Shown here piece after piece: positions 1 to 17,999 of a DNA stretch of 64,000 nt (positions are counted from its first letter, which is position 1; every line of letters begins with the position of its first letter). The DNA is from Candidatus Latescibacterota bacterium. GTDB taxonomy: Bacteria > Latescibacterota > UBA2968. Position numbers and translations under genes: made by a program. Where the stretch lies: contig OZ242320.1 of NCBI GenBank assembly GCA_965208125.1, forward strand, positions 4,480,001 to 4,544,000, read 5' to 3'. Under the pieces are notes generated by a model. The model was not told where the DNA came from. It was given only the letters and a program-made list of their open reading frames with translations, and searched no databases.

Positions 1-1
1 C

Positions 2-694
2 TGGTTGATGCTGGGACCAACAGGTCCCCGGCGATTGCGCTTGGCTGTCGAATATCTCTGTCAGATTCGCGGTGGGATTTGCTTTCTCGTGGATCTCGAT
101 CCCCGATGGGTTAACAAGCTGATCAAGCGCGGCGCACTCCAGGAATTGGAACTCTACAAAGCCCATGTCATCGATCAGGCGCTCACTATTTTGCGCGCGA
201 ATGATAATGTGAAGTGCATGTTTACGACCCCCAAACTTCTCGAAGAATTGTGCGAAAAAATTTCTCTGCAAAAAGCCGGGATCAGCGGCATTTTTTGCGG
301 GGGAACAGAGATGAACGCACAGTTTAATAGATTTGCGAGAGAAGAGCTTATCCCTGGCATCGATTTTGTTCCTACCTACGGCAATACCCTGATGGGACTG
401 GCTTATTCCAAGCCGCTGGAACCCGGAGACAATTACGCGATTACGTATTACCCGCCCGTGCCCCGCGCGTTTATCGAACTGGTGAATCCAAATAATCCCG
501 ATGAAGAGGTCGGTTACGACGAAGTCGGGCGCGTGATGCTGACGACACTTACGAAAGAATTTTTTATGCCCCGCTTTCTCGAACGCGATGAGGCCGAACG
601 CGCCAAACCAATTGAAGCCTATCCCTGGGATGGCGTGAGAAATCTGGGTTTGTTCTCCGAGTTGCAGGAATCAGTCGTCGTTGGGGTGTATTAA
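2..694 (+). CDS. EhpF-like adenylating enzyme (atypical AMP-binding, PaaK/LuxE-like), 5' truncated by the window edge
   Basis: Frame is open to the left edge (W-L-M-LGPTGP). Motifs GPTGP, DLDPRWV, FTTPKLL, GGT, YGNTLMG, GRVMLTTLT, LERD and terminal GVY match my recollection of EhpF-type phenazine-modifying enzymes. Confidence 0.7.
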   Translation, partial: WLMLGPTGPRRLRLAVEYLCQIRGGICFLVDLDPRWVNKLIKRGALQELELYKAHVIDQALTILRANDNVKCMFTTPKLLEELCEKISLQKAGISGIFCGGTEMNAQFNRFAREELIPGIDFVPTYGNTLMGLAYSKPLEPGDNYAITYYPPVPRAFIELVNPNNPDEEVGYDEVGRVMLTTLTKEFFMPRFLERDEAERAKPIEAYPWDGVRNLGLFSELQESVVVGVY

Positions 695-753
695 ATCGAA
701 CGGATCTTTTATATCCCATACTGTGGTTTCAGTCTTTCAAAGAGGCGAAATAT

Positions 754-2178
754 ATGATTCACTTACCTATTTTACGTGCGGGGGAACCGTACACGAGTTT
801 GAATGTTCAGGAAGTGTCGCATATTCAAACTGGCGAGCCGCTCGTTCAGGTCAGTCAGGCAAATCGGGGGCTGGTTGCGAAAGACTTAAATGCGGCGGTG
901 GCGAACAAACGGGTGCTCGACAGGCTGAGTGTATCCGAACTCGCAGGTATAACCCGCGAAGCCGCACGCTTATTTGCAAAAGCCGATTTGCCCATTGGCG
1001 ATCATATACAGACGCCCGATGACTATGTCAAACAGGTGTCTGGCACAACGGGTATGCCCGAAGCGCTCTGCCGCGCGAATATGGAAAAAATTCAGCTCGT
1101 GTGTACGGAGATCGAAGCTATTTTAGGGGGTCTCACGCGTGGGTTAGATCTCGCTGTGCTCGATGAAGGCTGGCACAATCAGGATGGTCGCTCTCTCAGC
1201 TATATTTGCCAGGCCGATGCCCTCGGAGCTATATTGCCGAGCAATTCACCGGGTGTACACGCCCTGTGGGTTCCATCCATACCGCTCAAGGTGCCCCTCG
1301 TTCTCAAACCTGGACGCGAAGAGCCATGGACGCCTTTCCGAATTGCACAGGCATTTATCGAAGCGGGGTGCCCGCCAGAAGCGTTTGGGTTTTATCCTAC
1401 GGATCACGGAGGTGCCACTGAAATTTTGCTTCGCTGCGGTCGCTCCATGCTATTTGGGGGCGGGGCGACGGTTGCGCCCTGGCTGAGCGATCCCCGCGTG
1501 GAAATTCACGGGCCTGGACAGAGTAAGGTCATTATTGGCGAAGATGTGATAGACCGCTGGGAAGACTATCTCGACATCGCGGTAGCCTCGATTGCTGCAA
1601 ATGGCGGTCGCTCTTGCATCAATGCGTCAGGCGTGTGGGTTCCCGCGTATGGTCGAGAAATTGCCGAAGCACTCGCAGAGCGATTGGCAAAAATTGTCGG
1701 GAGACCTCTGGATGATCCAGAAGCGCAGATCGCGGCATTTACCAATCCCGCATTCGCCGATCAAATTTCGACAACGATAGACATCCATCTGAAAACCCCA
1801 GGGGCTGAAGATCTGACCGAGAAATTGCGCGGTGATCGGCTGGTCGAGATCGATGGCTTGAAATTCTTAAATCCCACGGTTGTCTGGTGCGATGATTTTG
1901 AACATCCTCTTGCAAATACCGAATATTTGTTCCCATACGCGAGCGTGGTCGAAGTTCCGCAATCGGAAATTCTGGATAAGATCGGACCGAGCCTCGTGGT
2001 GACAGCAATAACAGAGGACCGTGCATTTATCGATAAATTGCTCAATTCTCCCCATGTAGAAAGACTCAATGTGGGGGCGATTCCCACGCCTCAGATTTCA
2101 TGGGATCAACCACACGAGGGCAATTTGTTTGAACATCTTTACCGACAACGCGCGCTGCAATGGGCGAAACAGGCTTAG
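754..2178 (+). CDS. Aldehyde dehydrogenase-fold acyl-thioester reductase (EhpG/LuxC-like)
   Basis: ALDH motifs PSNSP, LKPG, GRSCINAS (catalytic Cys) and EYLFPY. HGPGQSK replaces the usual ELGGK, so the general-base Glu is missing. Confidence 0.8.
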   Translation: MIHLPILRAGEPYTSLNVQEVSHIQTGEPLVQVSQANRGLVAKDLNAAVANKRVLDRLSVSELAGITREAARLFAKADLPIGDHIQTPDDYVKQVSGTTGMPEALCRANMEKIQLVCTEIEAILGGLTRGLDLAVLDEGWHNQDGRSLSYICQADALGAILPSNSPGVHALWVPSIPLKVPLVLKPGREEPWTPFRIAQAFIEAGCPPEAFGFYPTDHGGATEILLRCGRSMLFGGGATVAPWLSDPRVEIHGPGQSKVIIGEDVIDRWEDYLDIAVASIAANGGRSCINASGVWVPAYGREIAEALAERLAKIVGRPLDDPEAQIAAFTNPAFADQISTTIDIHLKTPGAEDLTEKLRGDRLVEIDGLKFLNPTVVWCDDFEHPLANTEYLFPYASVVEVPQSEILDKIGPSLVVTAITEDRAFIDKLLNSPHVERLNVGAIPTPQISWDQPHEGNLFEHLYRQRALQWAKQA

Positions 2179-2181
2179 GAG

Positions 2182-3297
2182 ATGATAGCATTTGATTTTT
2201 GTCCCACTACGCGCGTGGTGTTTGGGGAGGGCACACTCGCGCAATTGGGGAAATTATCGAAAGAATTGGGCGGAAGCCGCATTCTTTTTGTGACTGATCC
2301 AGGGATTGTAAGTGCCGGGCTTGCAGACCGTGCGATTGCGCCGCTTCAAAGCGCTTCCCTGGATTTTTTTGTGTTTGATGGGGTGGGCGAAAATCCCACG
2401 ACCGCGCATGTAGAGGCCGGTGTCGCGTTTGCAAAGGCACATGGAAATATTGATCTGATTGTCGGGATGGGAGGAGGTAGTGCGATGGATTGCGCCAAGG
2501 GGATCAATTTTATCCTGACAAACGGCGGACAGATGGCCGATTATATGGGTATGGGCCAGGCGGCGAATCCCATGTTGCCCTCGATTGGGGTTCCAACAAC
2601 TGCGGGTACGGGGAGCGAAGCGCAGTCCTACGCGCTTATTTCCGATGCCAAAACGCATGTCAAGATGGCCTGTGGCGATCTTAAAGCGCGATTTCGAAGT
2701 GTTATTCTCGATCCGCCACTGATCGAAAGTGTGCCGAAAAATGTCGCAGCAGCAGCGGGAATAGACGCCATTGCACACGCTATTGAGAGTTATGTTTGCA
2801 CGCGCCGCAATGCCATTTCTATGATGTTCGCGCAAAAGGCGTGGCAATTGCTTTCATCGAGTTTTGAATGCGTGTTGAAGGATGCTTCCGATAGCGATGC
2901 GAGGAGCAAAATGCTTTTGGGTGCGCACTTTGCCGGTGCGGCTATTGAGAATGCCATGTTGGGTGCAGCTCATGCGTGTGCCAATCCATTGACCGCGCAT
3001 TTTGGTATTGTACATGGCATCGCTGTGGCACTTTTGCTGCCCGCTGTCGTCCAATTTAATGGCGAAACCCAAAGTACGCGCTATCGCGGACTCGGAGTTG
3101 ATGTTGATGAACTCGTCGAGAAGGTCGTTTTTTTGAAGGAATGTGCGAATCTGCCTTCTCGATTGCGCGACCTCGGCGTAGCGCGTGACAGCCTCCCAAT
3201 GCTGGCAAAAGATGCAACTGAACAATGGACGGGTACTTTTAATCCGAGACCCGTAGGCGAAAAAGATTTTCTCGCCCTTTACGAATCTGTGTATTGA
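2182..3297 (+). CDS. Iron-containing alcohol dehydrogenase
   Basis: GGGSAMDCAK, PTTAGTGSE, DAIAHAIES and HACANPL..HGIAV metal-ligand motifs. Confidence 0.95.
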   Translation: MIAFDFCPTTRVVFGEGTLAQLGKLSKELGGSRILFVTDPGIVSAGLADRAIAPLQSASLDFFVFDGVGENPTTAHVEAGVAFAKAHGNIDLIVGMGGGSAMDCAKGINFILTNGGQMADYMGMGQAANPMLPSIGVPTTAGTGSEAQSYALISDAKTHVKMACGDLKARFRSVILDPPLIESVPKNVAAAAGIDAIAHAIESYVCTRRNAISMMFAQKAWQLLSSSFECVLKDASDSDARSKMLLGAHFAGAAIENAMLGAAHACANPLTAHFGIVHGIAVALLLPAVVQFNGETQSTRYRGLGVDVDELVEKVVFLKECANLPSRLRDLGVARDSLPMLAKDATEQWTGTFNPRPVGEKDFLALYESVY

Positions 3298-3303
3298 TCT
3301 GCA

Positions 3304-4404
3304 ATGAGAATAATTCTTTTTTTTCTTGGTTTTCAATTATTTTTAATTCCCGTCCAGGCAGAAGAATGGAATCGATTTCGCGGGGATGCACAATCTACAG
3401 GTGTTGCACATAGTAGCTTGCCTGCTGAACTGGATGTGTTGTGGACGGCACAGATCGAAATAGGGATTGAATCCACCGTCGCAATTTGGCAAGATGCGGT
3501 GTATGTGGGCGGGTTGGATGAAAAGCTATACGCTTTTAATTTTGATAGCGGTGCGCTCAAGTGGACGTATGTGGCTACGGGTGAGATCAAGTCGTCGCCA
3601 TTGGTTTTTGAAAAAACCGTGTATTTCGGCGATGGCAATGGCGTTTTTCACGCTGTTGATGCACAAACGGGTAACGCACTTTGGACGTTTCAAACGGATG
3701 GGGAGATTATCTCATCGGCAAATGCAACCGGGGGGCGCGTCCTGTTTGGGTCTTATGATCAGTTCTTATACTGCCTCGCGCCGGGCGATGGAGCTTTGTT
3801 GTGGAAGATAGAAACGGATGGTTATGTTCACGGCATGCCAGCTATCGCGCAAACGCACGCACTCATCGCGGGCTGTGATGGTCTTTTGCGCGTTATCGAT
3901 ATTGCCAGTGGAAAAGAGCAATCGCAAATCGAACTCGGTGCTTATGTGGGCGCCAGCGCAGCCGTTCATCAGACGCGCGCTTATGTGGGGACTTATGAAA
4001 GCCAGATCTTGTGCATTGACTTAACGGCAAAAGAAATTGTCTGGCGATACGAACATCCGCAGCGAAAATTGCCTTATTTTGCATCGCCATCCGTGACCCC
4101 TGAGCGGGTTATTGTTGCAGGGCGCGACAAAATGATTCACGCACTTGATCCCGACACGGGCGATGTTTTGTGGACTTATACGTCCCGATCTCGATTTGAA
4201 GCATCTCCGGTTGTGGTGGGTGATCGCGTTTTTGCAGGGACTACGGGTGGCAGAATCGTGGCATTAAATCTCGAGACCGGTGAACTCGGTTGGGAATTTG
4301 TGACCGGATCGGAATTTGTTGCCTCGCCCAGCGTGGCACGCGAGCGGCTGATTATTGGCACAACAGATGGTACGTTATATTGTTTTGGAAAGGCGGAAGA
4401 ATGA
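3304..4404 (+). CDS. Exported PQQ-like/BamB-like beta-propeller protein
   Basis: Signal peptide, WNRFRGD motif and about 8 repeats of A.D..TG...W. Confidence 0.9.
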   Translation: MRIILFFLGFQLFLIPVQAEEWNRFRGDAQSTGVAHSSLPAELDVLWTAQIEIGIESTVAIWQDAVYVGGLDEKLYAFNFDSGALKWTYVATGEIKSSPLVFEKTVYFGDGNGVFHAVDAQTGNALWTFQTDGEIISSANATGGRVLFGSYDQFLYCLAPGDGALLWKIETDGYVHGMPAIAQTHALIAGCDGLLRVIDIASGKEQSQIELGAYVGASAAVHQTRAYVGTYESQILCIDLTAKEIVWRYEHPQRKLPYFASPSVTPERVIVAGRDKMIHALDPDTGDVLWTYTSRSRFEASPVVVGDRVFAGTTGGRIVALNLETGELGWEFVTGSEFVASPSVARERLIIGTTDGTLYCFGKAEE

Positions 4405-5747
4405 GCGAGCAAATTCAGATTCCAGAGCCAGCGACAACCCGCAAGGTGTGGAGGGAAACAGATGTTGGTAGCGTGTTTGTTTCCAATTATCCGCCTTACT
4501 CTTTCTGGCGCGATGAAAATACGGCGCAGATTGTAGAGATGTTGCATTCATCTGATTCGGGGGATAGAGAAATACCTCTGGGCCTTTACATGCATATTCC
4601 ATTTTGCCGAAAACGGTGCAAGTTCTGTTATTTTCGGGTTTATACAGATCGCAATAGCGCGGAAATTCAGACGTATTTGGATACCCTGGCAAAAGAAGTG
4701 GAAACTTATAGCACGTTGCCGCGTATTGCAGGCCGAAAATTGAACTTTGTTTATTTTGGCGGTGGCACGCCGTCTTATATTAGTGTTAAACACTTAAAGG
4801 TACTGGTTGACCGGATCAAGGCTGTGATGCCGTGGGATGATGCGGAAGAAGTGGCATTTGAGTGCGAGCCGGGTACGCTGTCAAAATCCAAAGTCGAGGC
4901 TATTCGTGAGATTGGCGTCACGCGCTTGAGTCTGGGATTGGAGAATTTAAACGATGATATTTTGCGGGAGAATGGCCGCGCACACGTCAGCAAAGAAATT
5001 TACAGGGTTATGCCGTGGGTCAAGGCGCAGGAATTTGCACAGGTCAATGTAGATTTAATCTCCGGTATGGTTGGGGAGACGTGGGAGACGTGGCGAGATA
5101 CGGTGCAGGGTACTATTGATCTCGACGCGGATAGTGTTACCATTTATCAGATGGAATTGCCGTTTAATACGACGTATTCAAAATCGATACGCGATGGAGG
5201 AGGCTTGCAGGTCGCAGATTGGCCTACTAAGCGCGCATGGCACAATTATGCGATTGAAGAGTTTACCAAAGCGGGTTATGAAACATCGAGTGCTTATACG
5301 CTGGTGAAAAAAGGTCGCCTGAACAAATTCGTCTATCGAGATGCCCTGTGGCGCAGCGCAGATCTCATCGGTACGGGTGTGGCTTCTTTTTCGCATGTGG
5401 GAGGTATGCATTTTCAAAACCAGACGCATTGGGATCCCTATATCGAAACCATTGACAAAGGACAACTTCCGATCAATCGCTCTTTTGTGCCGACAAAAGA
5501 AGAACGGCTGATAAGGGAGATGATTTTGCAACTCAAGCTCGGGCGGATTGAAACAGCTTATTTCCAGGATAAATTTGGTGTCAATATCCTGCACCAATTT
5601 GATGATGCCTATCAGAAGCTCAGGGATTACGAGATGCTGGATTTCGATTCGCAAAGTATCACTCTGAGCCGGGAGGGACTTTTGCGCGTCGATCAGTTGC
5701 TGCCCGAATTTTACCACGAAAAATATCGCAATTCGCGCTATACATGA
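4401..5747 (+). CDS. HemN-like (class C) radical SAM enzyme
   Basis: LYMHIPFCRKRCKFC (CxxxCxxC), YFGGGTPS, RLSLG, NVDLISG and a HemN C-terminal domain. Start placed at the ATG at 4401, which overlaps the upstream stop (ATGA). Confidence 0.92.
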   Translation: MSEQIQIPEPATTRKVWRETDVGSVFVSNYPPYSFWRDENTAQIVEMLHSSDSGDREIPLGLYMHIPFCRKRCKFCYFRVYTDRNSAEIQTYLDTLAKEVETYSTLPRIAGRKLNFVYFGGGTPSYISVKHLKVLVDRIKAVMPWDDAEEVAFECEPGTLSKSKVEAIREIGVTRLSLGLENLNDDILRENGRAHVSKEIYRVMPWVKAQEFAQVNVDLISGMVGETWETWRDTVQGTIDLDADSVTIYQMELPFNTTYSKSIRDGGGLQVADWPTKRAWHNYAIEEFTKAGYETSSAYTLVKKGRLNKFVYRDALWRSADLIGTGVASFSHVGGMHFQNQTHWDPYIETIDKGQLPINRSFVPTKEERLIREMILQLKLGRIETAYFQDKFGVNILHQFDDAYQKLRDYEMLDFDSQSITLSREGLLRVDQLLPEFYHEKYRNSRYT

Positions 5748-5771
5748 GTGATCAATAACTATGGAGGATTT

Positions 5772-7013
5772 ATGAAATACAGGTATTATTTGTTAATCGC
5801 TGTTGTGCTTTGCTTTTCTTCCGCACACGCGGATTGGCCCCAATGGTTGGGACCCAACCGAACGGGTATTTCATCTGAAACGGGGTTGTTGACAACCTGG
5901 GCAAAAGATGGACCAGCGGTTGTGTGGGAAAAAGAACTCGGTGAGGGGTTTTCCGGTATCTCGGTCGCAGATGGACGGGTCTATACGATGTTTTCTGCTG
6001 GGGAGGACGAATTTGTCATTTGTTTGAATGAAAAAACGGGCGAGGAAATCTGGCGTTTCAGGACCGGTGCCAAATACTATGAGCGTCAAGGTGGAAATGG
6101 CCCCCGTTCTCAGCCTACTGTGGATGGCGAGCGGGTTTTTGTGCTCAGTGCCGAAGGCTGGTTGTACGCGCTCAATGCAAAAGATGGAAAAAAACTATGG
6201 CTGGTCGATCTCTACGATGGGTTGGGCAGTCGCGTGCCAAAATTCGGTTTTTCGACGTCGCCGCTGGTCGAGGGCGATTTATTGCTTTTAGAAGTGGGCA
6301 CACGGCAGGGGACGTTTATCGCTCTGGATAAGACAAATGGTGCTGTCAAGTGGGCGTCTCAAAACGATATTGTGTCCTATTCATCGCCTATTGCTGTAGA
6401 TATTGCGGATATTCGCCAGGTGGTTTTTGTTTCGGGCGAAGCCGCAGTTGGACTTTCTCCCACAGATGGATCGCTCTACTGGCGATTGCCCTGGTCCACA
6501 TCTTATGATCTGAATATTGCAACACCAATTTTAGTGCCCCCAGATCACATATTTATTTCTTCGGGTTATGACCACGGGGCAGCTCTGTTGCAAATATCCC
6601 GAGAGGGAGATGGTTTGAGCGTTCAAAAGGTGTGGGAAAGCCGCGGCATGAAAAACCATTTTGGAACATCGCTCCTGATCGGCGACTATATCTACGGTTT
6701 TGACAATGCGATTTTGAAATGTATTGAGGCAAAGACTGGCAAAGAACAGTGGAGACGCCGGGGGTATGGCAAGGGATCGCTTATTTATGCCGATGGACGT
6801 TTGATCATTTTGAGCGATAAAGGTAAGCTCGCATTGGCAGACGCATCGCCCACAGAGTTTCGGGAAAAGGCCGGCGCGCAAGTGCTGTCGGGTAAATGCT
6901 GGACACCACCAACACTTGCCAATGGCAAAATTTTTGTGCGCGATATGCACAGAATTGTATGCATGGATGTGTCGGGCACGCAGACGAAACCTGCGGACAC
7001 GGAGAGCGAGTAA
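5772..7013 (+). CDS. Exported PQQ-like beta-propeller protein (WPQWLGP type)
   Basis: GGAGG RBS before ATG 5772, signal peptide, DWPQWLGPNRTG, GPRSQP, YSSP and WTPPTLANG. Confidence 0.9.
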   Translation: MKYRYYLLIAVVLCFSSAHADWPQWLGPNRTGISSETGLLTTWAKDGPAVVWEKELGEGFSGISVADGRVYTMFSAGEDEFVICLNEKTGEEIWRFRTGAKYYERQGGNGPRSQPTVDGERVFVLSAEGWLYALNAKDGKKLWLVDLYDGLGSRVPKFGFSTSPLVEGDLLLLEVGTRQGTFIALDKTNGAVKWASQNDIVSYSSPIAVDIADIRQVVFVSGEAAVGLSPTDGSLYWRLPWSTSYDLNIATPILVPPDHIFISSGYDHGAALLQISREGDGLSVQKVWESRGMKNHFGTSLLIGDYIYGFDNAILKCIEAKTGKEQWRRRGYGKGSLIYADGRLIILSDKGKLALADASPTEFREKAGAQVLSGKCWTPPTLANGKIFVRDMHRIVCMDVSGTQTKPADTESE

Positions 7014-9186: not shown

Positions 9187-10458
9187 ATGCCTGACTTGAC
9201 CACAGATCGAAACGCGCTTTGGCAGCGGCAATTGAAGCGGTTGCGAGGTATGCTGTCTTCAGTGCTGAATGGCAATGATTTTTATCGCAATAAGTTGAAT
9301 CGGGCAGGTATTTATCGACCCGAGGATATTCAGACGCGCAATGATTACAGGCTGTTGCCCTTCACTACTAAAGAGGAATTATCGGCTGACCAGATGGCGT
9401 ATCCACCTTATGGCAGCAACGTGACTTTTCCGCCAGATCACTATATCCGCGTCCATCAAACATCGGGGACTACGGGAGAGCCTTTGAACTGGTTGGATAC
9501 GGTAGAGAGTTGGGATTGGTTTGCGCGTTGCTGGACTTATGTGTATCGCGGGGCGGGCGTGACGGCAAATGACAGATTGTTTTTTGCCTTTTCTTTTGGT
9601 CCTTTTATCGGATTCTGGACCGGGCATGAGAGCGCGCGTTTAATGGGTGCGATGTCCATCTCTGGGGGGTCCATGTCGTCGATTCAGCGTTTGCAAGCGA
9701 TTCAGGATCATCGGGTTACTGTTCTGATCTGTACGCCGACATATGCCCTGCATCTGGCAGAGGTGGCTGAGGCAGAAGGTTTTGATATTGCGGGTGGGGG
9801 TGTTCAGACTACGATTCACGCGGGTGAACCCGGTGCGGGGTTGCCGGCGACCAGACGACGCATTGAGCAGGCCTGGGGAGCGCGTTGTTATGACCACGCC
9901 GGGGCGACTGAGGTGGGTGCGTGGGGATTTGAATGTGCGTTTCGAGATGGCATGCATATCAACGAAGCTGAATTTATTTGCGAAGTGATTGATCCCGATA
10001 CGGGCGAACAAGCGAGAGAGGGGGAGTTGGTGCTCACCAGTTTGGGGCGTGCTGGTATGCCCGTTATCCGCTATCGCACAGGAGATCGCGTAAAGCTGCA
10101 TGCGGGAATATGTGATTGCGGTTCGAGTTTCTCGCGTCTTGAAGGGGGCGTGATTGGACGTATCGACGATGCATTGATTATCCGCGGCGTCAATTTTTAT
10201 CCCAGCGCGATTGAAAATATCGTTCGGGGATTTCCCGAAGTGACCGAGTTTGCGGTGGATATCTACCGACAAAGCGAAATGGATGATATGAAAATTCGCA
10301 TCGAGTTAAATGGTGGAGAGCCGGGGGCAATTTCCGAGACGATTGGCAGAGAGGTGCGACATATTCTGGGCATACGCGCTGGCGTTCAAACCGTGCCGCA
10401 TAATACTTTGCCGAGATTTGAACTGAAAGCGAGACGGTTTACTGATCACCGAGTTTAA
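9187..10458 (+). CDS. Phenylacetate-CoA ligase (PaaK) family AMP-binding enzyme
   Basis: TSGTTG P-loop, DHAGATEVG, RYRTGD, GRIDDALIIRGVNFYP and a C-terminal catalytic Lys (ELKARR). Confidence 0.92.
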   Translation: MPDLTTDRNALWQRQLKRLRGMLSSVLNGNDFYRNKLNRAGIYRPEDIQTRNDYRLLPFTTKEELSADQMAYPPYGSNVTFPPDHYIRVHQTSGTTGEPLNWLDTVESWDWFARCWTYVYRGAGVTANDRLFFAFSFGPFIGFWTGHESARLMGAMSISGGSMSSIQRLQAIQDHRVTVLICTPTYALHLAEVAEAEGFDIAGGGVQTTIHAGEPGAGLPATRRRIEQAWGARCYDHAGATEVGAWGFECAFRDGMHINEAEFICEVIDPDTGEQAREGELVLTSLGRAGMPVIRYRTGDRVKLHAGICDCGSSFSRLEGGVIGRIDDALIIRGVNFYPSAIENIVRGFPEVTEFAVDIYRQSEMDDMKIRIELNGGEPGAISETIGREVRHILGIRAGVQTVPHNTLPRFELKARRFTDHRV

Positions 10459-10472: not shown

Positions 10473-11732
10473 ATGATTGCAGATCAATACGATGTCATTG
10501 TCATTGGTGGAGGACCTGCGGGGAGTACGACAGCCGCGCTTGTCGCTGAATATGGGCACCGCGTACTGTTGCTGGAAAGGGAGGAGTTTCCCAGGTTTCA
10601 GATTGGCGAGTCCCTGATGCCGGGTACTTACTGGTCATTCAAACGGCTGGGGTTGCTGGATAAGCTAAAAAAAAGTGCGTTTGTCAAAAAGTACAGTGTT
10701 CAGTTTTTCAGCGGTTCGGGAAAAGGCTCTGCGCCATTTTATTTTCACTTACACGATCCCCACGAGAGTTCTATCACGTATCAGGTGTTGCGCAGCGAAT
10801 TTGATCTTATGATGATGGACAATGCCCGCGAGAAAGGCACTGTGGTCGAGCAGGGGGCGAGTGTGCATCAGGTGCATTTTAGTGGAGAGCGCGCAACGGG
10901 TGTTCAGGTGAGATACCGCGATGGACAGATCAGAGATGTGTCTGCCAGTGTTATTGTAGATGCGACGGGGCGAAGCGCGCTTATTTCGAGAAGGCTAAAG
11001 ACCAAGACGATTGAGCCAGAGCTAAAAAAGGCGTCTATTTTCACCCACTACAAAGGCGCGTTCCGAGACGAGGGTATTGACGAAGGCGCAACGCTGATTT
11101 TACATACGCAAGATAAGGATTCCTGGTTCTGGTACATCCCGCTGGCAGATGATGTGGTCAGCGTGGGTGTTGTTGGGGGATTGGATTATCTGTTGCAAAA
11201 CCGCAAGAGAACCCCTCAGGAAATTTTTGAAGAAGAGTTAGCAAAGTGTGTCCGCATGCAAGAACGGCTCGCAGGGGCAGATCAGTTATTTCCGATGAAA
11301 GTCACGCAGGACTTTTCATACCGATCCAATACTGTCGCGGGTGAGGGATGGGTGCTGGTAGGCGATGCTTTTGGTTTTATAGATCCCGTTTATTCCTCGG
11401 GTGTGTTTCTCGCGCTCAAATCGGGCGAGATGGCCGCCGATGCAATCCACGAGGCCATTGAAAAACGCGATTTCTCTGCCGAACAACTCGGCAAATGGGG
11501 GCCAGAATTTCTTCCGGGCATGGAGGCGATTCGCAAATTGGTCTATGCTTTTTATACCAAAGATTTCAGTTTTGCCAGATTTTTAAAAGCGCATCCAGAA
11601 TGTATAGATGGCATTATCAATATCTTAAAAGGCAATGTCTATCGCGAGGATGTCACCCCTATTTTTGAGCCTATGGGGCAAATGTGCGATCTGCCCGAAA
11701 CTGTGGATCACTACACTGAGGTATCTGCTTAA
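10473..11732 (+). CDS. Flavin-dependent halogenase-like oxidoreductase (CmlS/CndH-like)
   Basis: GGGPAG, FPRFQIGESL, FVKKYS (conserved Lys), WFWYIP (WxWxIP) and GDAFGFIDPVYSSGV. Confidence 0.82.
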   Translation: MIADQYDVIVIGGGPAGSTTAALVAEYGHRVLLLEREEFPRFQIGESLMPGTYWSFKRLGLLDKLKKSAFVKKYSVQFFSGSGKGSAPFYFHLHDPHESSITYQVLRSEFDLMMMDNAREKGTVVEQGASVHQVHFSGERATGVQVRYRDGQIRDVSASVIVDATGRSALISRRLKTKTIEPELKKASIFTHYKGAFRDEGIDEGATLILHTQDKDSWFWYIPLADDVVSVGVVGGLDYLLQNRKRTPQEIFEEELAKCVRMQERLAGADQLFPMKVTQDFSYRSNTVAGEGWVLVGDAFGFIDPVYSSGVFLALKSGEMAADAIHEAIEKRDFSAEQLGKWGPEFLPGMEAIRKLVYAFYTKDFSFARFLKAHPECIDGIINILKGNVYREDVTPIFEPMGQMCDLPETVDHYTEVSA

Positions 11733-11747
11733 ACGGGATTGCTGTAT

Positions 11748-13034
11748 ATGCGAATTGCTTATATTGCCGCGGGTGCAGCGGGCATGTATTGTGGCAGTTG
11801 TATTCACGACAATGCGCTGGCCTCCGCTCTTCAGCGCAGGGGGATAGACTTCGCGCTTATTCCGACGTACACGCCCCTGCGTACCGATGAACCGGGCGCG
11901 AGTATCGATCGGGTTTTTTATGGCGGCATCAATGTTTATCTCCAGCAGAAAATGGGTATTTTTCGGCACACGCCCTCTTTTATCGATAAGTTATTGAATA
12001 GCCGAATACTGCTCAATAGTCTCGCCCGTTTCAGTGGTTCAACGCGTGCTGAAGACCTCGGCGCGCTCACGGTATCGGTTTTAGAAGGGGAAGAAGGCGC
12101 ACAAAAAAAAGAACTCGCAAAGCTGGTGCACTGGTTAAAAGAGGATTTTCAGCCCGATCTCGTGCAATTGACCAATTCGATGTTTTTGGGCATGGCCAGA
12201 GAAATGAAACGGGAACTCGGCGTTCCCGTTTTGTGTTCTCTGCAAGGTGAGGATATCTTTCTCGAAGGATTGATAGAACCGTACAACGCGCAGGCGCGGC
12301 AGTGCTTACAGGATCGGGCAAAAGATGTCGATGGATTTGTAGCTACGTGTGACTATTATGCCGATTTTATGGCTGATTATCTCGATGTGCCGCGCAATAG
12401 GATTCACGTCGCTCCTTTGGGCATCAAATTAGACGGGCATGGGGAAAGCGATGTAAAGCCGGATCCATTGCCTTTTGCGATAGGTTATCTCGCCCGAATA
12501 TGTCCCGAGAAAGGGTTGCATGCGCTGGTAGATGCGTTTCATCAACTGGCTGAGCAAGTCGGTAAGGAGAATGTAAGACTTAGTGTTGCCGGTTATCTCG
12601 GACAAAGAGACGCGCCGTATTTTCAGCACGTATGCGAACAAATCGCATCCCGGGGACTTTCCGATGTTTTTGATTATCGCGGGGAAGTCAATCGAGAAGA
12701 AAAAATTGCATTCCTGAATAGTATCCATATCTTATCCGTGCCCACGCCTTATAAAGAGCCTAAAGGACTATCGCTGCTCGAAGCTATGGCCAATGGCGTT
12801 CCCGTTGTTCAGCCCCGGCACGGTATTTTTCCTGAATGGATTGAAAAAACGGGTGGGGGAATTCTGGTAGAGCCAGATTCTTCAGAGGCTCTGGCGGCAG
12901 GGTTAATGCGGATGATGAATGACGCAGATGGGCGAGAGGCGATGGGGCAAAAAGGCAAAGAAGCAGTACATCAAAATTTTAGCGACGACGATATGGCGGA
13001 AGCAACACTGGCGGTATATCGTCAGTATGTGTGA
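11748..13034 (+). CDS. Glycosyltransferase family 4 with an N-terminal CxxC
   Basis: GYLARICPEKG and EPKGLSLLEAMANGVPVV (E-x7-E). The N-terminus reads GMYCGSCIHD. Confidence 0.9.
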   Translation: MRIAYIAAGAAGMYCGSCIHDNALASALQRRGIDFALIPTYTPLRTDEPGASIDRVFYGGINVYLQQKMGIFRHTPSFIDKLLNSRILLNSLARFSGSTRAEDLGALTVSVLEGEEGAQKKELAKLVHWLKEDFQPDLVQLTNSMFLGMAREMKRELGVPVLCSLQGEDIFLEGLIEPYNAQARQCLQDRAKDVDGFVATCDYYADFMADYLDVPRNRIHVAPLGIKLDGHGESDVKPDPLPFAIGYLARICPEKGLHALVDAFHQLAEQVGKENVRLSVAGYLGQRDAPYFQHVCEQIASRGLSDVFDYRGEVNREEKIAFLNSIHILSVPTPYKEPKGLSLLEAMANGVPVVQPRHGIFPEWIEKTGGGILVEPDSSEALAAGLMRMMNDADGREAMGQKGKEAVHQNFSDDDMAEATLAVYRQYV

Positions 13035-13059: not shown

Positions 13060-13551
13060 ATGCCGACTTCTTCTTCTGGACTTACGTGGTTGATTTTTGC
13101 GTTGATGACTGTGGGCGCGTGGGGTTTGTACGGGATTTTTCTGCACACCGGACAGATCGCTATGGGCGATCCCGAAAATGGACGCTACAAAGCTTTTCTC
13201 TTTGTGGGTATTGCCTATCTTTTGACAGCTGTTATTGGATCCCTCATTGTGCTGGCGATCAACGGATCGGACTGGTCATTTCCGACAAAGGGGCTGACCT
13301 GGTCGCTGCTGGCTGGTATTGTGGGGGCCATCGGTGCATTTGGCGTGCTTCTCGCCTTTGGGGCGAAGGGGACACCGCCCGTGGTTATGTCTATTGTTTT
13401 TGCCGGCGCGCCTATTGTCAATGCCGTCGTATCCCTCATCTTGCATCCGCCAGCAGGTGGGTGGGGTGGGTTGAACTGGCAATTTGTGCTGGGTATTATA
13501 CTGGCTGCGATGGGAGGTTGTCTGGTGACATTATTTAAACCTTCGTCTTGA
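13060..13551 (+). CDS. Small multi-pass membrane protein (EamA/DMT-like)
   Basis: About 5 hydrophobic segments, WGLYG motif and a GGAGG RBS. Confidence 0.6.
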   Translation: MPTSSSGLTWLIFALMTVGAWGLYGIFLHTGQIAMGDPENGRYKAFLFVGIAYLLTAVIGSLIVLAINGSDWSFPTKGLTWSLLAGIVGAIGAFGVLLAFGAKGTPPVVMSIVFAGAPIVNAVVSLILHPPAGGWGGLNWQFVLGIILAAMGGCLVTLFKPSS

Positions 13552-13565
13552 TGACGGATAGCACT

Positions 13566-14003
13566 ATGCACAGTGAATTTCACACTACTCGCAGGGTTGC
13601 ATTTTCCGATACGGACATGGCCGGGATTGTACACTTTTCCCGGTTTTTTGTCTTTATGGAAGCTGCCGAGCATGCTTTTTTGCGCGCGTTGGGTACGAGT
13701 GTTTCAACAGAATGGGATGGGAATAAAATTGGATGGCCGCGATTGGAAGCGACATGTACATATCTCAGTCCAGCCGTATTTGAAGATGTGCTGGATATTC
13801 ATCTGAAGGTGATACGCAAAGGCACAAAATCCCTGACTTATCGGTTTGATTTTTTTCGCGGAGAGACAGCTATTGCTAGCGGCGAATTGAGTGCGGTATG
13901 TTGTATATGCAATCCCGGCGAAAAAATCAGGTCCATACCGATTCCAGATTTTATTGCGGATCAGATCGCGGATGAAGCAGATGGCGCAGATAGACGCGGA
14001 TGA
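13566..14003 (+). CDS. Hot-dog fold acyl-CoA thioesterase (4HBT/YbgC family)
   Basis: RVAFSDTDMAGIVHFSRFFVFMEAAE motif. Confidence 0.92.
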   Translation: MHSEFHTTRRVAFSDTDMAGIVHFSRFFVFMEAAEHAFLRALGTSVSTEWDGNKIGWPRLEATCTYLSPAVFEDVLDIHLKVIRKGTKSLTYRFDFFRGETAIASGELSAVCCICNPGEKIRSIPIPDFIADQIADEADGADRRG

Positions 14004-14007: not shown

Positions 14008-14014
14008 CGAGAAA

Positions 14015-14041: not shown

Positions 14042-14061
14042 GAATATTTAAGAGGTCGCAA

Positions 14062-14715
14062 ATGGCACTAAAAGTTGAAAACCTTTCCAAACGCTTTGGC
14101 GATGTAAATGTTCTGCAGGGTATATCTTTTGAAATGACAATGGGGCAGTCGCTGAGTGTTATGGGGCCTTCGGGGTCGGGGAAGAGCACCTTGTTGCATG
14201 TGCTTGGTACGCTGGATCGGCCATCTGAAGGGAGCCTCGAAATTGAAGGCCAGGATCCCTTTGCACTGTCGGAAATCGACCTTGCGCGGTTTAGAAATCA
14301 GGGGATTGGATTTGTGTTTCAAGAGCACCATCTTTTGCCGCAATACTCGGTTTTGGAAAATGTTTTGATTCCGACGCTGGCATTTCGAAATGGCGATGCT
14401 CGAGATCGCGCCCGAGAGATTATTGATCGCGTGGGCTTGTCGCATCGCATTGATCACCGGCCCGCCGAATTATCTGGTGGCGAGCGACAGCGCACAGCTG
14501 TTGCGCGTGCGCTCATCAATTCTCCGGCATTGCTCTTGTGCGACGAGCCAACGGGTAGCCTGGATGGGGCGCGGGCAGAGGAAATAGCCGATTTGCTATT
14601 TGAATTGCACAAGCGAGAAAATAATATCCTGATCTGCGCGACGCACAGCTCGGCACTGGCTCGTCGCTTTGAGCGGCGGTTTGACCTGCGGGAGGGGACG
14701 TGCGTCGAAGTCTGA
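14062..14715 (+). CDS. ABC transporter ATP-binding subunit (LolD/MacB-like)
   Basis: Walker A GPSGSGKST, signature LSGGERQR, Walker B LLLCDEPTG. AGAGG RBS before ATG 14062. Confidence 0.95.
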   Translation: MALKVENLSKRFGDVNVLQGISFEMTMGQSLSVMGPSGSGKSTLLHVLGTLDRPSEGSLEIEGQDPFALSEIDLARFRNQGIGFVFQEHHLLPQYSVLENVLIPTLAFRNGDARDRAREIIDRVGLSHRIDHRPAELSGGERQRTAVARALINSPALLLCDEPTGSLDGARAEEIADLLFELHKRENNILICATHSSALARRFERRFDLREGTCVEV

Positions 14716-17700
14716 TTTATTTCTGGCGAATTAATCTGGCTGTTGTGTTCGGCGTGGCAGTGGCGACAGCTGTTCTGACGGGTGCTTTGATCGTGGGCGA
14801 TTCCGTACGCGGCAGCTTGCGGGATTTGTCACTGAGTCGCCTGGGCAAAATTGATCACGCTCTGGTATCCGAGCGATTTTTCCGCGCAAGTCTGGAGCGC
14901 GACCTCGAGCGTGAACTCGACACTCAGGATGTTGTATCGGCCATTAGCTTGGGCGGAACGGCTGTTCACGTGGAATCGAATACGCGGGCTTCTCGCGTTC
15001 AAATTCAGGGTATTGATAATCGCTTTGCAAATCTGTTTGATCAAATATTGCCCGAGTTGACGCTCGAGGGAATATTTCCATCGGTTGTCGTCAACGAATC
15101 CCTCCAAAAAGAACTCAATGCACAGATTGGCGATGCCATTCTGCTGTCTTTTGAACAATCAGATGATATTCACCGCGAATCGCTATTTGGACGTGCCGAT
15201 GGTGCGGTTCAAACAATTCGATTGACACTCGCAGGCGTGCTTCCCGATAGGGGAATGGGGCGCTTTGGCTTTTTCGCTCGCCAGAGCGTTCCCCTCAATG
15301 CATATCTGTCGCTGCCGGTTTTACAAAAAGCGTTGGGGCAAAGAGGCCGCGTGAATACATTGCTGGTGTCGGGTGATCCTGATGCCGACGTTCGGGAAGC
15401 TCTTTCCCGCGTTGCAACGCCGGATGATCTTGGCATTGTCATCCGCCATGAAGCAGATTATTTCGCTGTCGAGAGCACGCAGTTTATTCTCAAATCCCAT
15501 ATTGTAGAGACTATTCAAAAAGTATCTGCTGAATTAAACGCGCCCCACATGTCTATTCTCACCTATCTGGCGAATACCACACAGGTGGGGGAGAGAGAAC
15601 TGCCCTATTCCACAATTTCTGCGATGGATGTTGAGAATCTGGGGACTTTTCAGCTTGTAGATGGATCACTACAACTCGGGGAAGACGATATTTTGCTGAA
15701 TATCTGGGCGGCTGAGGATTTGAACGCACGAGTTGGCGATGAAGTGAAAGTTGCCTATTACGAAGTTGCGCCAGGAGAAGAACTCCTGACCCGTTGGGAG
15801 ACGTTCCAACTCAAGGGTATTGTGGCAATGGCGGGATTGGGCGCAGATGAAAAGTTGTCCCCCGATTATCCGGGCCTGGGTGATGCAAATAATATGGCAG
15901 ATTGGGAAGCGCCCTTTCCCATAGACCTGAATAGTGTTCGTCCCGAGGATGAAGATTATTGGGATACCTATCGCGACGCGCCAAAAGCCTTTGTGTCTGC
16001 CGCGACTGGGCAGCGATTGTGGCAAAGTCGATTTGGCGTATTAACCGCCATACGCGTTGGGGCTATTGCGGGAGAAGATATCGAAACAACAGCGAAGCGA
16101 TTTGAGGATCGCTTGCTAAAAAACATTGCGCCCGAATCGGCTGGTCTGATATTTCAGCCCGTCAAACAACAGGGCCTGGCTGCTTCTGCGGGAGCGACGG
16201 ACTTTAGCGGGCTGTTTATTGCATTCAGCCAATTTCTGATTATCTCTGCGGCGCTTCTGGTCGGATTATTATTTCGCCTGAGTGTGGAGCAGCGAGGCAG
16301 AGAAGTTGGCCTGCGGATGGTGTCGGGATATACGGGAAAAAAAATTCGCCAACTCTTTAGTTGCGAGGGCCTTGTACTGGCCTGTGTGGGCGGTATTTTG
16401 GGGCTGGCAGGCGGTGTTTTCTACGCCTATCTGATTATGGCGGGATTGCGTACTTACTGGGTGGGCGCGGTTGGCACATCTGATCTCGTGCTTCATATCA
16501 ATGCATCGAGTCTGTTGTTGGGCTATGCCATTTCACTCATCGTGATTCTGCTGGCAATCTGGCTCACGCTTCGCCGTTTGGGTCATATTTCTGTTCGCGC
16601 ATTATTATCGGGTATTACGGAAGTGGTGCGCGCAAAGTCGCGCACTAAATGGTATGCTCTGGGCAGCCTCGTTCTTGCCGCGCTCAGTCTGGGGGGGGCT
16701 GTGGTGGTGGATCCATCGGCGGGTACGGTTTTGTTTTTTATTAGTGGCGCGTTGTGGATGGTTTCGGGGTTGTGCTTTCTCTCGCTCTGGTTTAGACGCG
16801 GGCATCGCGCCATAAGAGAGGGTATTATTGGGATGGGGGTACAAAATAGCAAGCGGCAGCCCGGGCGGAGTTTGCTGTGTGCCTCACTCATCGGTTGTGC
16901 GTGTTTTGTCATTGTTGCAGTAGGCGCGAACAGGCGAACTGATCTGACTCAAAATATCGCGCAGGATAAAGCCTCTGGCACGGGGGGTTTTGCCCTCATC
17001 GCCGAAGTTGATGTGCCGATTTATTGGGATTTCAATTCAAAAGACGGGCAATTTGAACTCGGATTCTCGCAAGCAGATGCAGAACTTTTGGATCAAGCGC
17101 GGTTTATTCCACTACGCGTTTTGCCCGGTGAAGATGCAAGTTGTCTCAATCTTTACAAGCCCGAAAGCCCGCGCGTTCTGGGCGTTCCCGAAGCTCTGCG
17201 TCAGCGAGGTGGTTTTACATTTCAGCAAACGAGTACCGAAGTGGAAAATCCCTGGACGCTATTATCCGAGGATCTGGGCGCAGATGTGGTCCCGGCAATT
17301 GGGGATTATAATTCGGCTATGTGGATCTTGCACAAGCAATTGGGCGATGATATTGTGTTGCAGAATGAAATAGGGGAGACCGTCAGACTGAGATTGGTGG
17401 GCTTGCTGAAGACGAGTATTTTTCAAAGTGAATTGCTGATTTCCGAAGACAATTTTTTGCGGCACTTTCCCGACCGGAGTGGGTATGAGGCTTTTCTCAT
17501 TGAAACGCAACAACCCGTTCAGCTTACTGCGCTTGTAGAGAGCAGATTAAAAGACATCGGGTTAGACGCCGTATCCACAACGCAAAAACTCGCGCATTTT
17601 CAGGAGGTCGAAAATACGTATCTCACCACCTTTCAAACACTGGGGGGATTGGGATTGCTGTTGGGTACGCTTGGATTGGGAATTGTTCTATTGAGAAATG

Positions 17701-17999
17701 TGATTGAAAGACGCGGTGAATTGGCCGTTCTTCGCGCCTTTGGATTTCGCCGCGCTGTGCTGTCGCGCATGTTGCTCGCGGAGAACGGTTTTTTAATGCT
17801 CGTGGGTCTGGCTATCGGTAGCGTCTCTGCGCTTATTGCAGTAGCGCCCCATGTCATGAGCTATGGTGCGTTAATTCCCTGGGGATCGCTGGCTCTCACG
17901 CTTGTCATCATATACGGTGCGGGCCTCATCGCAAGCGCGATAGCTGTTTTCTTTGCCTTGCGAGCACCTTTATTGCCCGCGTTGAAACAGGAGATATGA
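14700..17999 (+). CDS. Large FtsX/MacB-type ABC permease (duplicated permease domains)
   Basis: 1099 aa with two sets of TM helices and large periplasmic loops. EQRGREVGLRMVSG and ERRGELAVLRAFGF are FtsX-type motifs. Overlaps the ATPase gene. Confidence 0.9.
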   Translation: MRRSLIYFWRINLAVVFGVAVATAVLTGALIVGDSVRGSLRDLSLSRLGKIDHALVSERFFRASLERDLERELDTQDVVSAISLGGTAVHVESNTRASRVQIQGIDNRFANLFDQILPELTLEGIFPSVVVNESLQKELNAQIGDAILLSFEQSDDIHRESLFGRADGAVQTIRLTLAGVLPDRGMGRFGFFARQSVPLNAYLSLPVLQKALGQRGRVNTLLVSGDPDADVREALSRVATPDDLGIVIRHEADYFAVESTQFILKSHIVETIQKVSAELNAPHMSILTYLANTTQVGERELPYSTISAMDVENLGTFQLVDGSLQLGEDDILLNIWAAEDLNARVGDEVKVAYYEVAPGEELLTRWETFQLKGIVAMAGLGADEKLSPDYPGLGDANNMADWEAPFPIDLNSVRPEDEDYWDTYRDAPKAFVSAATGQRLWQSRFGVLTAIRVGAIAGEDIETTAKRFEDRLLKNIAPESAGLIFQPVKQQGLAASAGATDFSGLFIAFSQFLIISAALLVGLLFRLSVEQRGREVGLRMVSGYTGKKIRQLFSCEGLVLACVGGILGLAGGVFYAYLIMAGLRTYWVGAVGTSDLVLHINASSLLLGYAISLIVILLAIWLTLRRLGHISVRALLSGITEVVRAKSRTKWYALGSLVLAALSLGGAVVVDPSAGTVLFFISGALWMVSGLCFLSLWFRRGHRAIREGIIGMGVQNSKRQPGRSLLCASLIGCACFVIVAVGANRRTDLTQNIAQDKASGTGGFALIAEVDVPIYWDFNSKDGQFELGFSQADAELLDQARFIPLRVLPGEDASCLNLYKPESPRVLGVPEALRQRGGFTFQQTSTEVENPWTLLSEDLGADVVPAIGDYNSAMWILHKQLGDDIVLQNEIGETVRLRLVGLLKTSIFQSELLISEDNFLRHFPDRSGYEAFLIETQQPVQLTALVESRLKDIGLDAVSTTQKLAHFQEVENTYLTTFQTLGGLGLLLGTLGLGIVLLRNVIERRGELAVLRAFGFRRAVLSRMLLAENGFLMLVGLAIGSVSALIAVAPHVMSYGALIPWGSLALTLVIIYGAGLIASAIAVFFALRAPLLPALKQEI

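Follow-up and report, generated by a model that had tools for sequence, protein, structure and literature searches.

A conserved gene cluster of Latescibacterota and other hard-to-grow phyla with a candidate pathway to a halogenated 4-hydroxybenzoate-derived compound

Gene content and extent of the locus

We analyzed a 64,000-nucleotide stretch of DNA (the window, G000:C1:4480001-4544000, where G000 is the genome that carries it) from Candidatus Latescibacterota bacterium (GenBank assembly GCA_965208125.1, contig OZ242320.1). Window positions 1-17999 hold 14 genes, all on the + strand, that encode an EhpF-like adenylase, an aldehyde dehydrogenase (ALDH)-fold protein, an iron-containing alcohol dehydrogenase, a HemN-like radical S-adenosylmethionine (SAM) enzyme, a PaaK-like coenzyme A (CoA) ligase, a flavin-dependent halogenase, a GT4 glycosyltransferase, a thioesterase, two exported beta-propellers, and several transport proteins. 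With moderate confidence, we interpret this cluster as a system for the synthesis and envelope delivery of a halogenated compound derived from 4-hydroxybenzoate.

Open reading frame (ORF) listing and Pfam/NCBIfam scans bear out the original prediction of 14 co-oriented, tightly spaced genes of these families. The largest intergenic gaps are 59, about 58, and 49 nt, within the limit of about 60 nt first described. The overlapping junctions number three rather than two: propeller/radical SAM enzyme (4401/4404), membrane protein/thioesterase (13548/13551), and ATPase/permease (14700/14715). The limits first drawn, 1-17999, are too narrow on both sides. Retrieval of the 18 kb upstream (L002) places the start of the unit 4 kb 5′ of the window, with two extra exported PQQ_2-type propellers of 718 and 475 amino acids (aa), separated by 202 nt from a divergently oriented PhyH gene. 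That gene bounds the unit, so that the operon comprises 16 genes. Downstream, the locus extends to about 23855 with a convergent propeller gene, a second propeller gene, and genes for a TAXI binding protein and a fused tripartite ATP-independent periplasmic (TRAP) permease. Because the TAXI protein is 58% identical to the in-cluster TAXI protein of a Poribacteria locus (L014) and the permease is 62% identical to the in-cluster TRAP permease of locus L062, we count about 20 genes in the functional locus. The PhyH dioxygenase was rejected as a member, since only one genome, of the same genus, has its orthologue next to the cluster, and four other cluster-bearing genomes have it elsewhere or lack it. 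Among the 16 operon, 10 upstream, and 9 downstream genes, no core gene for a polyketide synthase (PKS), nonribosomal peptide synthetase (NRPS), phz pathway, or ribosomally synthesized and modified peptide was seen, and the earlier statement that PKS, NRPS, and phz cores are absent thus survives retrieval of the upstream sequence.

The first three genes form a putative carboxylate reductase module. The adenylase gene, a single copy in G000, enters the window as its 3′ part (1..694) and starts about 394 nt before it (L002:17606, or a TTG at 17528). Its product matches the structures of EhpF (PDB 3hgu/3l2k; 151.7 bits, E 2.9e-43, residues 35-374) and is a short ANL-type enzyme. The ALDH-fold protein (754..2178; PF00171, 53.8 bits), similar to EhpG and GriD, keeps the catalytic Cys when aligned to KauB, and a His replaces the general-base Glu; Cys and His are each found in 25 of 25 orthologues. 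The iron-containing alcohol dehydrogenase (2182..3297; PF00465, 163 bits; PF25137, 124 bits) scores under every NCBIfam equivalog cut-off. The predicted complex of the adenylase and the ALDH-fold protein reaches an ipSAE interface score of 0.73 (runs 0.72, 0.74, and 0.73), compared with 0.00 for the best of three controls. Of solved complexes 58 of 80 reach the mark used for this score, and of mismatched pairs 2 of 110; these figures are approximate here, as our own alignments were supplied. At least 88% of contacts agree between runs, and the partner has a predicted local distance difference test score (pLDDT) of at least 91. The model, a prediction, supports binding of the two proteins to each other. 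EhpG is presumably the reductase partner of EhpF; the literature on EhpF/EhpG that we found consists of incidental mentions. The GriC/GriD pair is described as forming an acyl-AMP that is then reduced to the aldehyde, with 3-amino-4-hydroxybenzoate as substrate (PMC10179220).

The adenylase and ALDH-fold genes are adjacent in the window and in most loci holding both. Other DNA separates them in L003, in L004, and on a contig of run X17. In L003, a 94%-identical relative, about 3.9 kb with two related ORFs stands between them (about 2300-6300), and on the 31.8-kb contig of run X17 the equivalent joint falls at window 693/731 with 3944 letters between. This insert may be a mobile element that splits the reductase pair.

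The ligase, halogenase, and thioesterase genes lie farther along the operon. The PaaK-like aryl-acid CoA ligase (9187..10458; PF14535) scores 222-251 bits with PaaK models, under their cut-offs, and its closest structural group is phenylacetate-CoA ligase (193 bits). The neighboring flavoenzyme (10473..11732) is a short form without a C-terminal extension and scores 92.9 bits with PF04820 against a gathering score of 21. Its closest PDB relatives are all halogenases, led by 8zop (231 bits; our search found no literature on this entry) and followed by CndH, PltA, and CmlS (180-185 bits). It contains GGGPAGS, K73, and WFWYIP, corresponding to the GxGxxG flavin adenine dinucleotide motif, the catalytic Lys, and the WxWxIP motif that we take to define flavin-dependent halogenases, and all three are kept in 30 of 30 orthologues. 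Judged by its sequence family and its nearest solved relatives, the enzyme is a genuine flavin-dependent halogenase. In three of 81 Latescibacterota halogenase orthologues (G039, G117, and G013) the reading frame is interrupted by a stop (TGA or TAG) or broken into two pieces, reflecting either gene decay in some lineages or assembly error. The hotdog-fold acyl-CoA thioesterase (13548..14003) is of the 4HBT/YbgC type (PF03061, PF13279; TIGR00051, 59.8 bits).

The radical SAM enzyme (4401..5747) is HemN-like (class C-like), with 72.4 bits for PF04055 and 20.4 or 24.4 bits for HemN_C in the long ORF and the genome search, respectively. Its cluster motif is CRKRCKFC, and CxxxCxxC is kept in 69 of 69 orthologues. 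PDB matches are limited to HemN (114 bits) and the methyltransferase NocN (92 bits). We rejected a housekeeping HemN role: the protein falls under the curated cut-offs for HemN (TIGR00538; 187.9 against 324.95 bits) and HutW (186.7 against 400 bits), and G000 has ChdC and HemE as well as a separate 371-aa HemW-like gene, while HemF was not found. ChdC and HemE without HemF are the mark of the coproporphyrin-dependent heme route, and with the separate HemW-like gene this means that heme synthesis can do without the cluster enzyme. It is the only SAM enzyme in the cluster and is co-inherited with the halogenase; it may supply a further modification, most likely a methyl group. In Pirellulales, the radical SAM gene is followed by one for a 153-aa GcvH-like protein with a lipoyl-lysine-like ESSKA motif (L038:11284-12858 and 11-12 other planctomycete loci), and next in those loci comes a 370-aa 4Fe-4S dicluster protein. 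G000 lacks orthologues of these planctomycete GcvH-like and Fer4 genes, and of the squalene-cyclase-like gene as well.

Conservation and the candidate ring precursor

Thousands of relatives of the radical SAM enzyme exist, of which the best 120 are 63-95% identical, and close relatives mark at least 594 species-level loci when one genome per species is scanned. The best 80 loci belong to Latescibacterota, Poribacteria, Acidobacteriota, Planctomycetota, and Verrucomicrobiales, and the nearest public loci are 94% identical. We counted the other genes in these 80 loci by tblastn and ORF clustering. The counts are lower bounds, many loci being on short contigs and a spurious antisense ORF having hidden the radical SAM gene itself in 12 of the 80. 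Propellers were found in 61 of the 80 loci, the iron-containing alcohol dehydrogenase in 38, the halogenase in 29, the PaaK-like ligase in 25, the ALDH-like protein in 24, and the EhpF-like adenylase in 18. GT4 and the TonB receptor were each found in 11, the thioesterase in 9, and the LolD-like ATPase and double-FtsX permease in 8 each. Four of the phyla hold near-complete clusters: Latescibacterota (L003, L004), a ‘Multivoradales’ metagenome-assembled genome (MAG; L025), Acidobacteriota (L028), Planctomycetota (L040, L050, L075), and Verrucomicrobiales (L060). Synteny kept in up to 80 loci of other organisms indicates that the arrangement is not due to chance.

Among 151 sampled Latescibacterota genomes, the radical SAM enzyme and the adenylase are each present in 83 and the halogenase in 81, all in the same genera. 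The radical SAM enzyme accompanies the halogenase in 81 of 81 genomes and the adenylase in 82, and the exceptions to co-inheritance are genomes that are 81-86% complete. In some genomes (G052, G018, G055, G123, and G082) the modules lie hundreds of kb to more than 1 Mb apart, so that co-inheritance is independent of adjacency. The expectation that these genes stay together or are co-inherited elsewhere is thereby borne out. In Pirellulales, the core consists of adenylase, reductase, iron-containing alcohol dehydrogenase, propeller, and radical SAM enzyme, followed by the GcvH-like and 4Fe-4S proteins, and a halogenase orthologue was found at a second locus in all five core-bearing planctomycete genomes checked. 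Enzyme identities of 45-70% across phyla suggest one conserved product and role rather than a diversifying antibiotic.

Loci of relatives provide a lead to the precursor. In many of them, a 180-214-aa protein that we call u190 is encoded just 5′ of the halogenase. Its AlphaFold (AF2) model (pLDDT 94.7) is best matched in Foldseek by the DUF98 structure 2nwi (TM 0.68/0.76), followed by UTRA domains and Escherichia coli chorismate lyase (TMq 0.55-0.56), and its sequence profile also finds 2nwi (E 2.7e-5). The protein thus has a stand-alone chorismate-lyase fold without a DNA-binding domain. Many of its 1348 JGI homologues are labeled chorismate-pyruvate lyase; Pfam and NCBIfam give it no family, and none of seven members matches PF04345 or PF01947 at E <= 10. 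A profile search of the fetched loci found u190 in 12 of the 80 loci centered on the radical SAM gene and in L090 and L091. Genes of PF01947, the family of the Rv2949c-like chorismate pyruvate-lyases, occur in L019 (Poribacteria) and in L094 and L095 (Latescibacterota), bringing loci with either gene to 13 of 80, plus 4 of 7 further loci. In L094 the lyase gene sits between the TonB receptor and the ligase (radical SAM enzyme-receptor-lyase-ligase-halogenase) in what is otherwise the gene order of the window. The family link between u190 and PF01947 is one of fold and a single cross-hit (L095, E 7e-5), and hhalign of u190 with the Rv2949c-like protein of G000 gives a weak match (E 0.007, probability 5.5%).

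G000 itself has no PF04345 gene and, in an hmmsearch of six-frame ORFs, no u190 match at E <= 10. Its only Rv2949c-like gene (PF01947, 63.8 bits) is unlinked, 940 kb from the cluster. This gene (L092:4645-7617; G000:C1:3536645-3539617) lies tail to tail with MTHFR and beside S-adenosylhomocysteine hydrolase, both SAM-cycle genes. Homologues occur in 33 of the 151 Latescibacterota genomes; 32 are cluster-bearing by the radical SAM enzyme, and the 33rd (G099) has the adenylase. Because loci from five phyla repeatedly place one of two non-orthologous chorismate-lyase-fold genes next to the ligase or halogenase, 4-hydroxybenzoate is the most likely ring precursor. By analogy, the in-cluster lyase also points to a tie with the baaA-baaB genes proposed for a planctomycete halogenated aromatic.

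Some Planctomycetota and one Vicinamibacterales MAG carry additional genes at this position. Directly 5′ of the lyase-like and halogenase genes in L090 (4836-8835), and also in L039, L054, and L077, are a squalene-hopene-cyclase-like gene and a DUF116-polyprenyl synthase fusion. The second locus in L090 reads squalene-cyclase-like protein, DUF116-polyprenyl synthase, u190, halogenase, PNPOx-like protein, SSF symporter, GT4, thioesterase, prenyltransferase-fold protein, and LolD-like ATPase. These neighbors hint at a meroterpenoid version of the product.

Proposed pathway, envelope delivery, and alternative readings

In the pathway that we propose, 4-hydroxybenzoate would come from chorismate, by a lyase that is unlinked in G000 and in-cluster in relatives, or from uptake through the TonB receptor and the TAXI-TRAP system. 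The PaaK-like ligase would convert it to the CoA thioester, the halogenase would place halogen ortho to the phenol, and the thioesterase would free the halo-acid. The EhpF-like enzyme would then adenylate the free halo-acid for its Glu-less ALDH-like partner to yield the aldehyde, as in a two-protein reductase of the GriC/GriD type. Reduction to the benzyl alcohol by the iron-containing alcohol dehydrogenase and glycosylation by the GT4 enzyme (11739..13034; PF00534, 102.4 bits) could follow. An EamA-like protein and an ATP-binding cassette (ABC) system of type VII would carry the product over the inner membrane, or extract it from there, and deliver it to the exported propellers, and the radical SAM enzyme would add a further group, most likely methyl. 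Such activate-modify-release logic, which parallels the 4-chlorobenzoate dehalogenation pathway, would explain the presence of a ligase and a thioesterase without a carrier protein. Here we infer the substrate, the order of steps, the halogen, the final product, and the roles of the radical SAM enzyme, GT4, ABC system, importers, and propellers. The general scheme of the original prediction, in which an activated aromatic acid is halogenated, reduced to an alcohol, and glycosylated before it reaches an ABC system, is retained in light of the EhpF match, the ALDH-fold protein with Cys and no Glu, and the halogenase motifs.

The envelope genes allow other readings of where the product goes and what it does. 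The ATPase (about 14062..14715; PF00005) is LolD/YbbA-like and scores 242.5 bits for LolD, under the cut-off of 307.75. The 1099-aa permease (14700..17999) has two stretches of PF02687 and a MacB-like periplasmic domain (PF12704), and its structural matches are weak ones to YtrF and MacB. We rejected it as a YbbP homologue, no YbbP match having appeared in the PDB search. For the 163-aa membrane protein (13060..13551), Pfam and NCBIfam return no match; language-model features, useful as a lead only, link it to ‘EamA domain-containing’ clusters (atlas feature score 0.97) and suggest a half-size EamA/DMT-type protein. Its orthologues occur in L003, L004, L075, L094, and L095. Type VII ABC systems are described as acting at the periplasmic side or outer leaflet, and YbbAP-TesA as extracting hydrophobic compounds from the inner membrane (PMC12646458). 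The transporter assigned at the outset to the MacB/LolCDE type is such a type VII system, and simple export from the cytoplasm is doubtful. By analogy, a soluble product would suit such a transporter less well than a lipophilic or membrane-associated one, and the terpenoid genes of some Planctomycetota likewise point to a lipophilic product.

One alternative, which we think quite unlikely, is that the product is a glycolipid or a lipid-anchored phenolic glycoside that does not leave the envelope, with GT4, the EamA-like protein, the ABC system, and the propellers forming a route for its extraction and delivery to the outer membrane. DevBCA for heterocyst glycolipids and LolCDE for lipoproteins are analogues of such a route. 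The GT4, thioesterase, LolD-like, and double-FtsX genes travel together across phyla, which agrees with it, as do the extraction of hydrophobic compounds by YbbAP-TesA and the polyprenyl synthase, squalene-cyclase-like, and prenyltransferase-fold genes beside the halogenase in L039, L054, L077, and L090. Matches to a bartoloside glycolipid-exporter gene are also reported in a preprint on sponge-microbiome clusters (bioRxiv 10.64898/2026.08.03.742642). The G000 cluster, however, has no fatty acid synthase, PKS, or prenyl gene; the genome has no squalene-cyclase-like orthologue and a polyprenyl synthase that is only 26% identical; and the permease shows no detectable relationship to YbbP.

The exported propellers are the most constant neighbors of the radical SAM enzyme and support a second alternative. 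Two lie within the 14-gene run (3304..4404, PF13360, 152.9 bits, signal-like N-terminus by eye; 5748/5772..7013, 122.9 bits, with a WPQWLGP motif after the signal sequence), and two lie downstream (18006..19541 on the - strand, 108.6 bits; 19559..21001 on the + strand, 77.4 bits). The cluster could make a periplasmic cofactor, ligand, or redox shuttle for these proteins, in the manner of pyrroloquinoline quinone (PQQ) or mycofactocin, with the importers serving in salvage; we consider this unlikely. A narrower version, to which we assign a small probability, is that a halogenated 4-hydroxybenzyl alcohol or aldehyde, or a glycoside, cycles between cytoplasm and periplasm as a cofactor or redox shuttle. 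The reductase and alcohol dehydrogenase would reduce it inside; outside, the propellers would use or oxidize it, and recovery would fall to the TonB receptor and the TRAP or SSF importers. PQQ salvage and the cycle of fungal chlorinated anisyl alcohol and aryl-alcohol oxidase are parallels. In favor of a cofactor are the frequency of propellers (61 of 80 loci); the orthologue of the 3304-4404 propeller, which stands directly 5′ of the radical SAM gene in most loci and is translationally coupled to it in the window; the enzymes, which are unusually conserved for secondary metabolism; and the distribution of PF13360 genes, of which G000 has 12, with 6 at the cluster locus. The propellers nevertheless belong to PF13360 (BamB-like PQQ_2) only and fall far under the PQQ-dehydrogenase models (75.5 and 38.1 against 480 bits for TIGR03075; 36.8 against 832 bits for TIGR03074). 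They are also much less conserved than the enzymes (33-60% as opposed to 52-65% identity). The expanded propeller family spoken of at the outset amounts to only 12 genes in G000, half of them at the locus. The correlation with propeller counts that had been suggested does appear when at most 17 candidates per genome are scored: cluster-bearing Latescibacterota show a median of 12 PF13360 matches, and 30 genomes from the same three families that lack the cluster show 3.5. It is largely circular, since 4-6 propeller genes come with the cluster itself. Should the propellers use the product, this would give a role to the large family of exported BamB-like propellers that Planctomycetota, Acidobacteriota, Verrucomicrobiota, and sponge symbionts encode.

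The importers are compatible with uptake of a precursor as well as with recovery of the product. The TonB-dependent receptor (7063..9183; plug PF07715, barrel PF00593) passes the siderophore-receptor model TIGR01783 (248.5 against 223.5 bits). The TAXI-type solute-binding protein (21014..21964, + strand; PF16868, 225 bits) and the fused TRAP permease (21945..23855, + strand; PF06808, 268 bits) have in-cluster relatives in Poribacteria and Vicinamibacterales, and elsewhere in the cluster family an SSF importer with DUF3311 is found. The receptor score, and an exporter, receptor, and importer in one locus, which is the usual siderophore layout, would suit a metallophore system in which a phenolate-type chelator is made, exported, and retaken through the receptor and an inner-membrane importer. 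We judge this improbable: only 11 of 80 loci have the receptor, and no planctomycete locus is among them; general family scans of the cluster and upstream genes revealed no catechol, hydroxamate, NIS (NRPS-independent siderophore), or NRPS enzymes; and carboxylate reduction and glycosylation would remove ligating groups.

The cluster family has importers of three kinds (TonB receptor, TAXI-TRAP, and SSF with DUF3311), which could instead serve uptake followed by catabolism or detoxification of an external aromatic acid or alcohol, the dehydrogenases being oxidative and the ligase feeding a CoA pathway; alcohol dehydrogenase, ALDH-fold, and CoA-ligase genes are typical of such pathways too. This reading is highly improbable in our estimation. 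The ALDH-fold protein has a His (25 of 25) in place of the general-base Glu for hydrolytic aldehyde oxidation and is paired with an EhpF-type adenylase, the halogenase motifs are intact, and a GT4 gene is present. The in-cluster chorismate-lyase genes in five phyla, moreover, indicate de novo supply, and the locus has no ring-cleavage or beta-oxidation genes.

Several observations weigh against the biosynthesis and delivery of a halogenated 4-hydroxybenzoate derivative as we propose it. No member of the cluster family is linked to a product. The cluster of the window has no chorismate lyase of its own and has two importers, the TonB receptor and TAXI-TRAP, that fit uptake from outside. No flavin reductase or carrier protein was seen in the cluster, and the halogenase may take either the free acid or its CoA ester. 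The radical SAM enzyme, 52-65% identical across phyla, and six exported propellers have no assigned pathway step. We know of no type VII ABC system that exports cytoplasmic solutes. The polyprenyl synthase and squalene-cyclase-like genes in some Planctomycetota mean that the product may vary by lineage. Contigs of relatives from RNA libraries (four runs, three studies) are 88-99% alike across all 30 bins of window 1-20000; one of these contigs is 31.8 kb and more likely DNA, and the coverage may reflect DNA carry-over rather than transcription. Finally, the roles of baaA and baaB are only proposed, with no knock-out, and the compound concerned, an O-methylated acid, is neither an alcohol nor a glycoside (bioRxiv 10.1101/723874).

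The species-level genomes that carry a close relative of the radical SAM enzyme, at least 594 in number, belong to hard-to-grow phyla, among them sponge symbionts as well as Planctomycetota and Acidobacteriota of soil and freshwater. The cluster could account for some of the orphan brominated phenolics of marine sponges.

Other genes flank the locus. Directly 3′ of it, an unrelated glycan-degradation block (window 23846-31592) encodes a heparinase II/III-like protein with DUF4962, an enolase-superfamily enzyme, a sulfatase, a metallophosphoesterase/5′-nucleotidase-like protein, and L-rhamnose isomerase. The upstream stretch contains genes for a 1000-aa UvrD-type helicase with an inserted RNase T-like exonuclease domain (L002:3158-6160) and a 662-aa DUF6785/DUF6784 membrane protein (L002:10870-12858).

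Comparison with known systems

The reductase module resembles EhpF/EhpG of D-alanylgriseoluteic acid synthesis in Pantoea and GriC/GriD of grixazone synthesis in Streptomyces, in each of which an EhpF-type adenylase has an adjacent ALDH-fold partner. The window cluster differs in having no phenazine or phenoxazinone genes and in the dedicated alcohol dehydrogenase gene that follows the pair. The transporter shares FtsX-type domains, a MacB-like periplasmic domain, and a LolD/YbbA-like ATPase with the type VII ABC systems MacB, LolCDE, FtsEX, and YbbAP-TesA, and, like YbbP, it has two FtsX domains on a single polypeptide. It is set apart by the missing YbbP sequence match and by the lack of a membrane-fusion or TolC-like gene.

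The bmp cluster of marine Pseudoalteromonas combines the chorismate lyase Bmp6 with the brominase Bmp5, and in it, as in our proposal, chorismate is converted to 4-hydroxybenzoate, which a flavin enzyme halogenates, by bromination in bmp. Bmp5, however, is a single-component decarboxylating brominase of another family; bmp further includes cytochrome P450 coupling and a carrier-protein pyrrole branch, and it contains no reductase, glycosyltransferase, radical SAM enzyme, or propellers.

The ‘Halo_AMP’ clusters are described as orphan sponge-microbiome clusters with a flavin halogenase and a PaaK-like adenylating enzyme, none of them linked to a product (Loureiro et al., bioRxiv 10.64898/2026.08.03.742642). 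Genes for PQQ-like, radical SAM, TonB, glycosyltransferase, and thioesterase proteins are frequent in them, and sponge Latescibacterota and Poribacteria are included. The scope of that study is sponge and seawater metagenomes, with detail on a P450-containing acidobacterial group (CC A), and peptidic brominated alkaloids are proposed as products. It distinguishes 20 groups, and the text compared here makes no link to chorismate lyase, carboxylate reductase, or non-sponge phyla.

A further precedent is a planctomycete (Planctomycetales strain 10988), producer of 3,5-dibromo-p-anisic acid, with adjacent genes for a chorismate-lyase-like protein (baaA) and a halogenase (baaB); 4-hydroxybenzoate formation followed by 3,5-dihalogenation is proposed, and no methyltransferase was found at the locus (bioRxiv 10.1101/723874). 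A 2025 review still treats the dibromo-anisic acid genes as only postulated, and our literature search for BaaA/BaaB with chorismate lyase and halogenase returned the Panter preprint alone. The u190-halogenase pairs of L090, L091, L077, and other loci fit the description of baaA/baaB, a comparison made by description rather than sequence. A tie to 4-hydroxybenzoate, and likewise to what is the sole halogenated aromatic known from a planctomycete, opens the way to concrete, cheap experiments.

The original statement that no described pathway has this combination therefore needs qualification, as the baaA/baaB pair and the Halo_AMP clusters describe it in part. New here are the full extent of the locus, the co-inheritance of three modules, the lyase link to 4-hydroxybenzoate and baaA/baaB, and the exclusion of a heme role for the radical SAM enzyme. 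Whereas baaA/baaB is described as two genes, the pair of the window type sits in a larger co-inherited set that adds a reductase, an iron-containing alcohol dehydrogenase, a radical SAM enzyme, a ligase, a thioesterase, GT4, a type VII ABC system, propellers, and importers. Set beside these systems, the cluster as we read it is a halogenated hydroxybenzoate pathway with unprecedented added parts.

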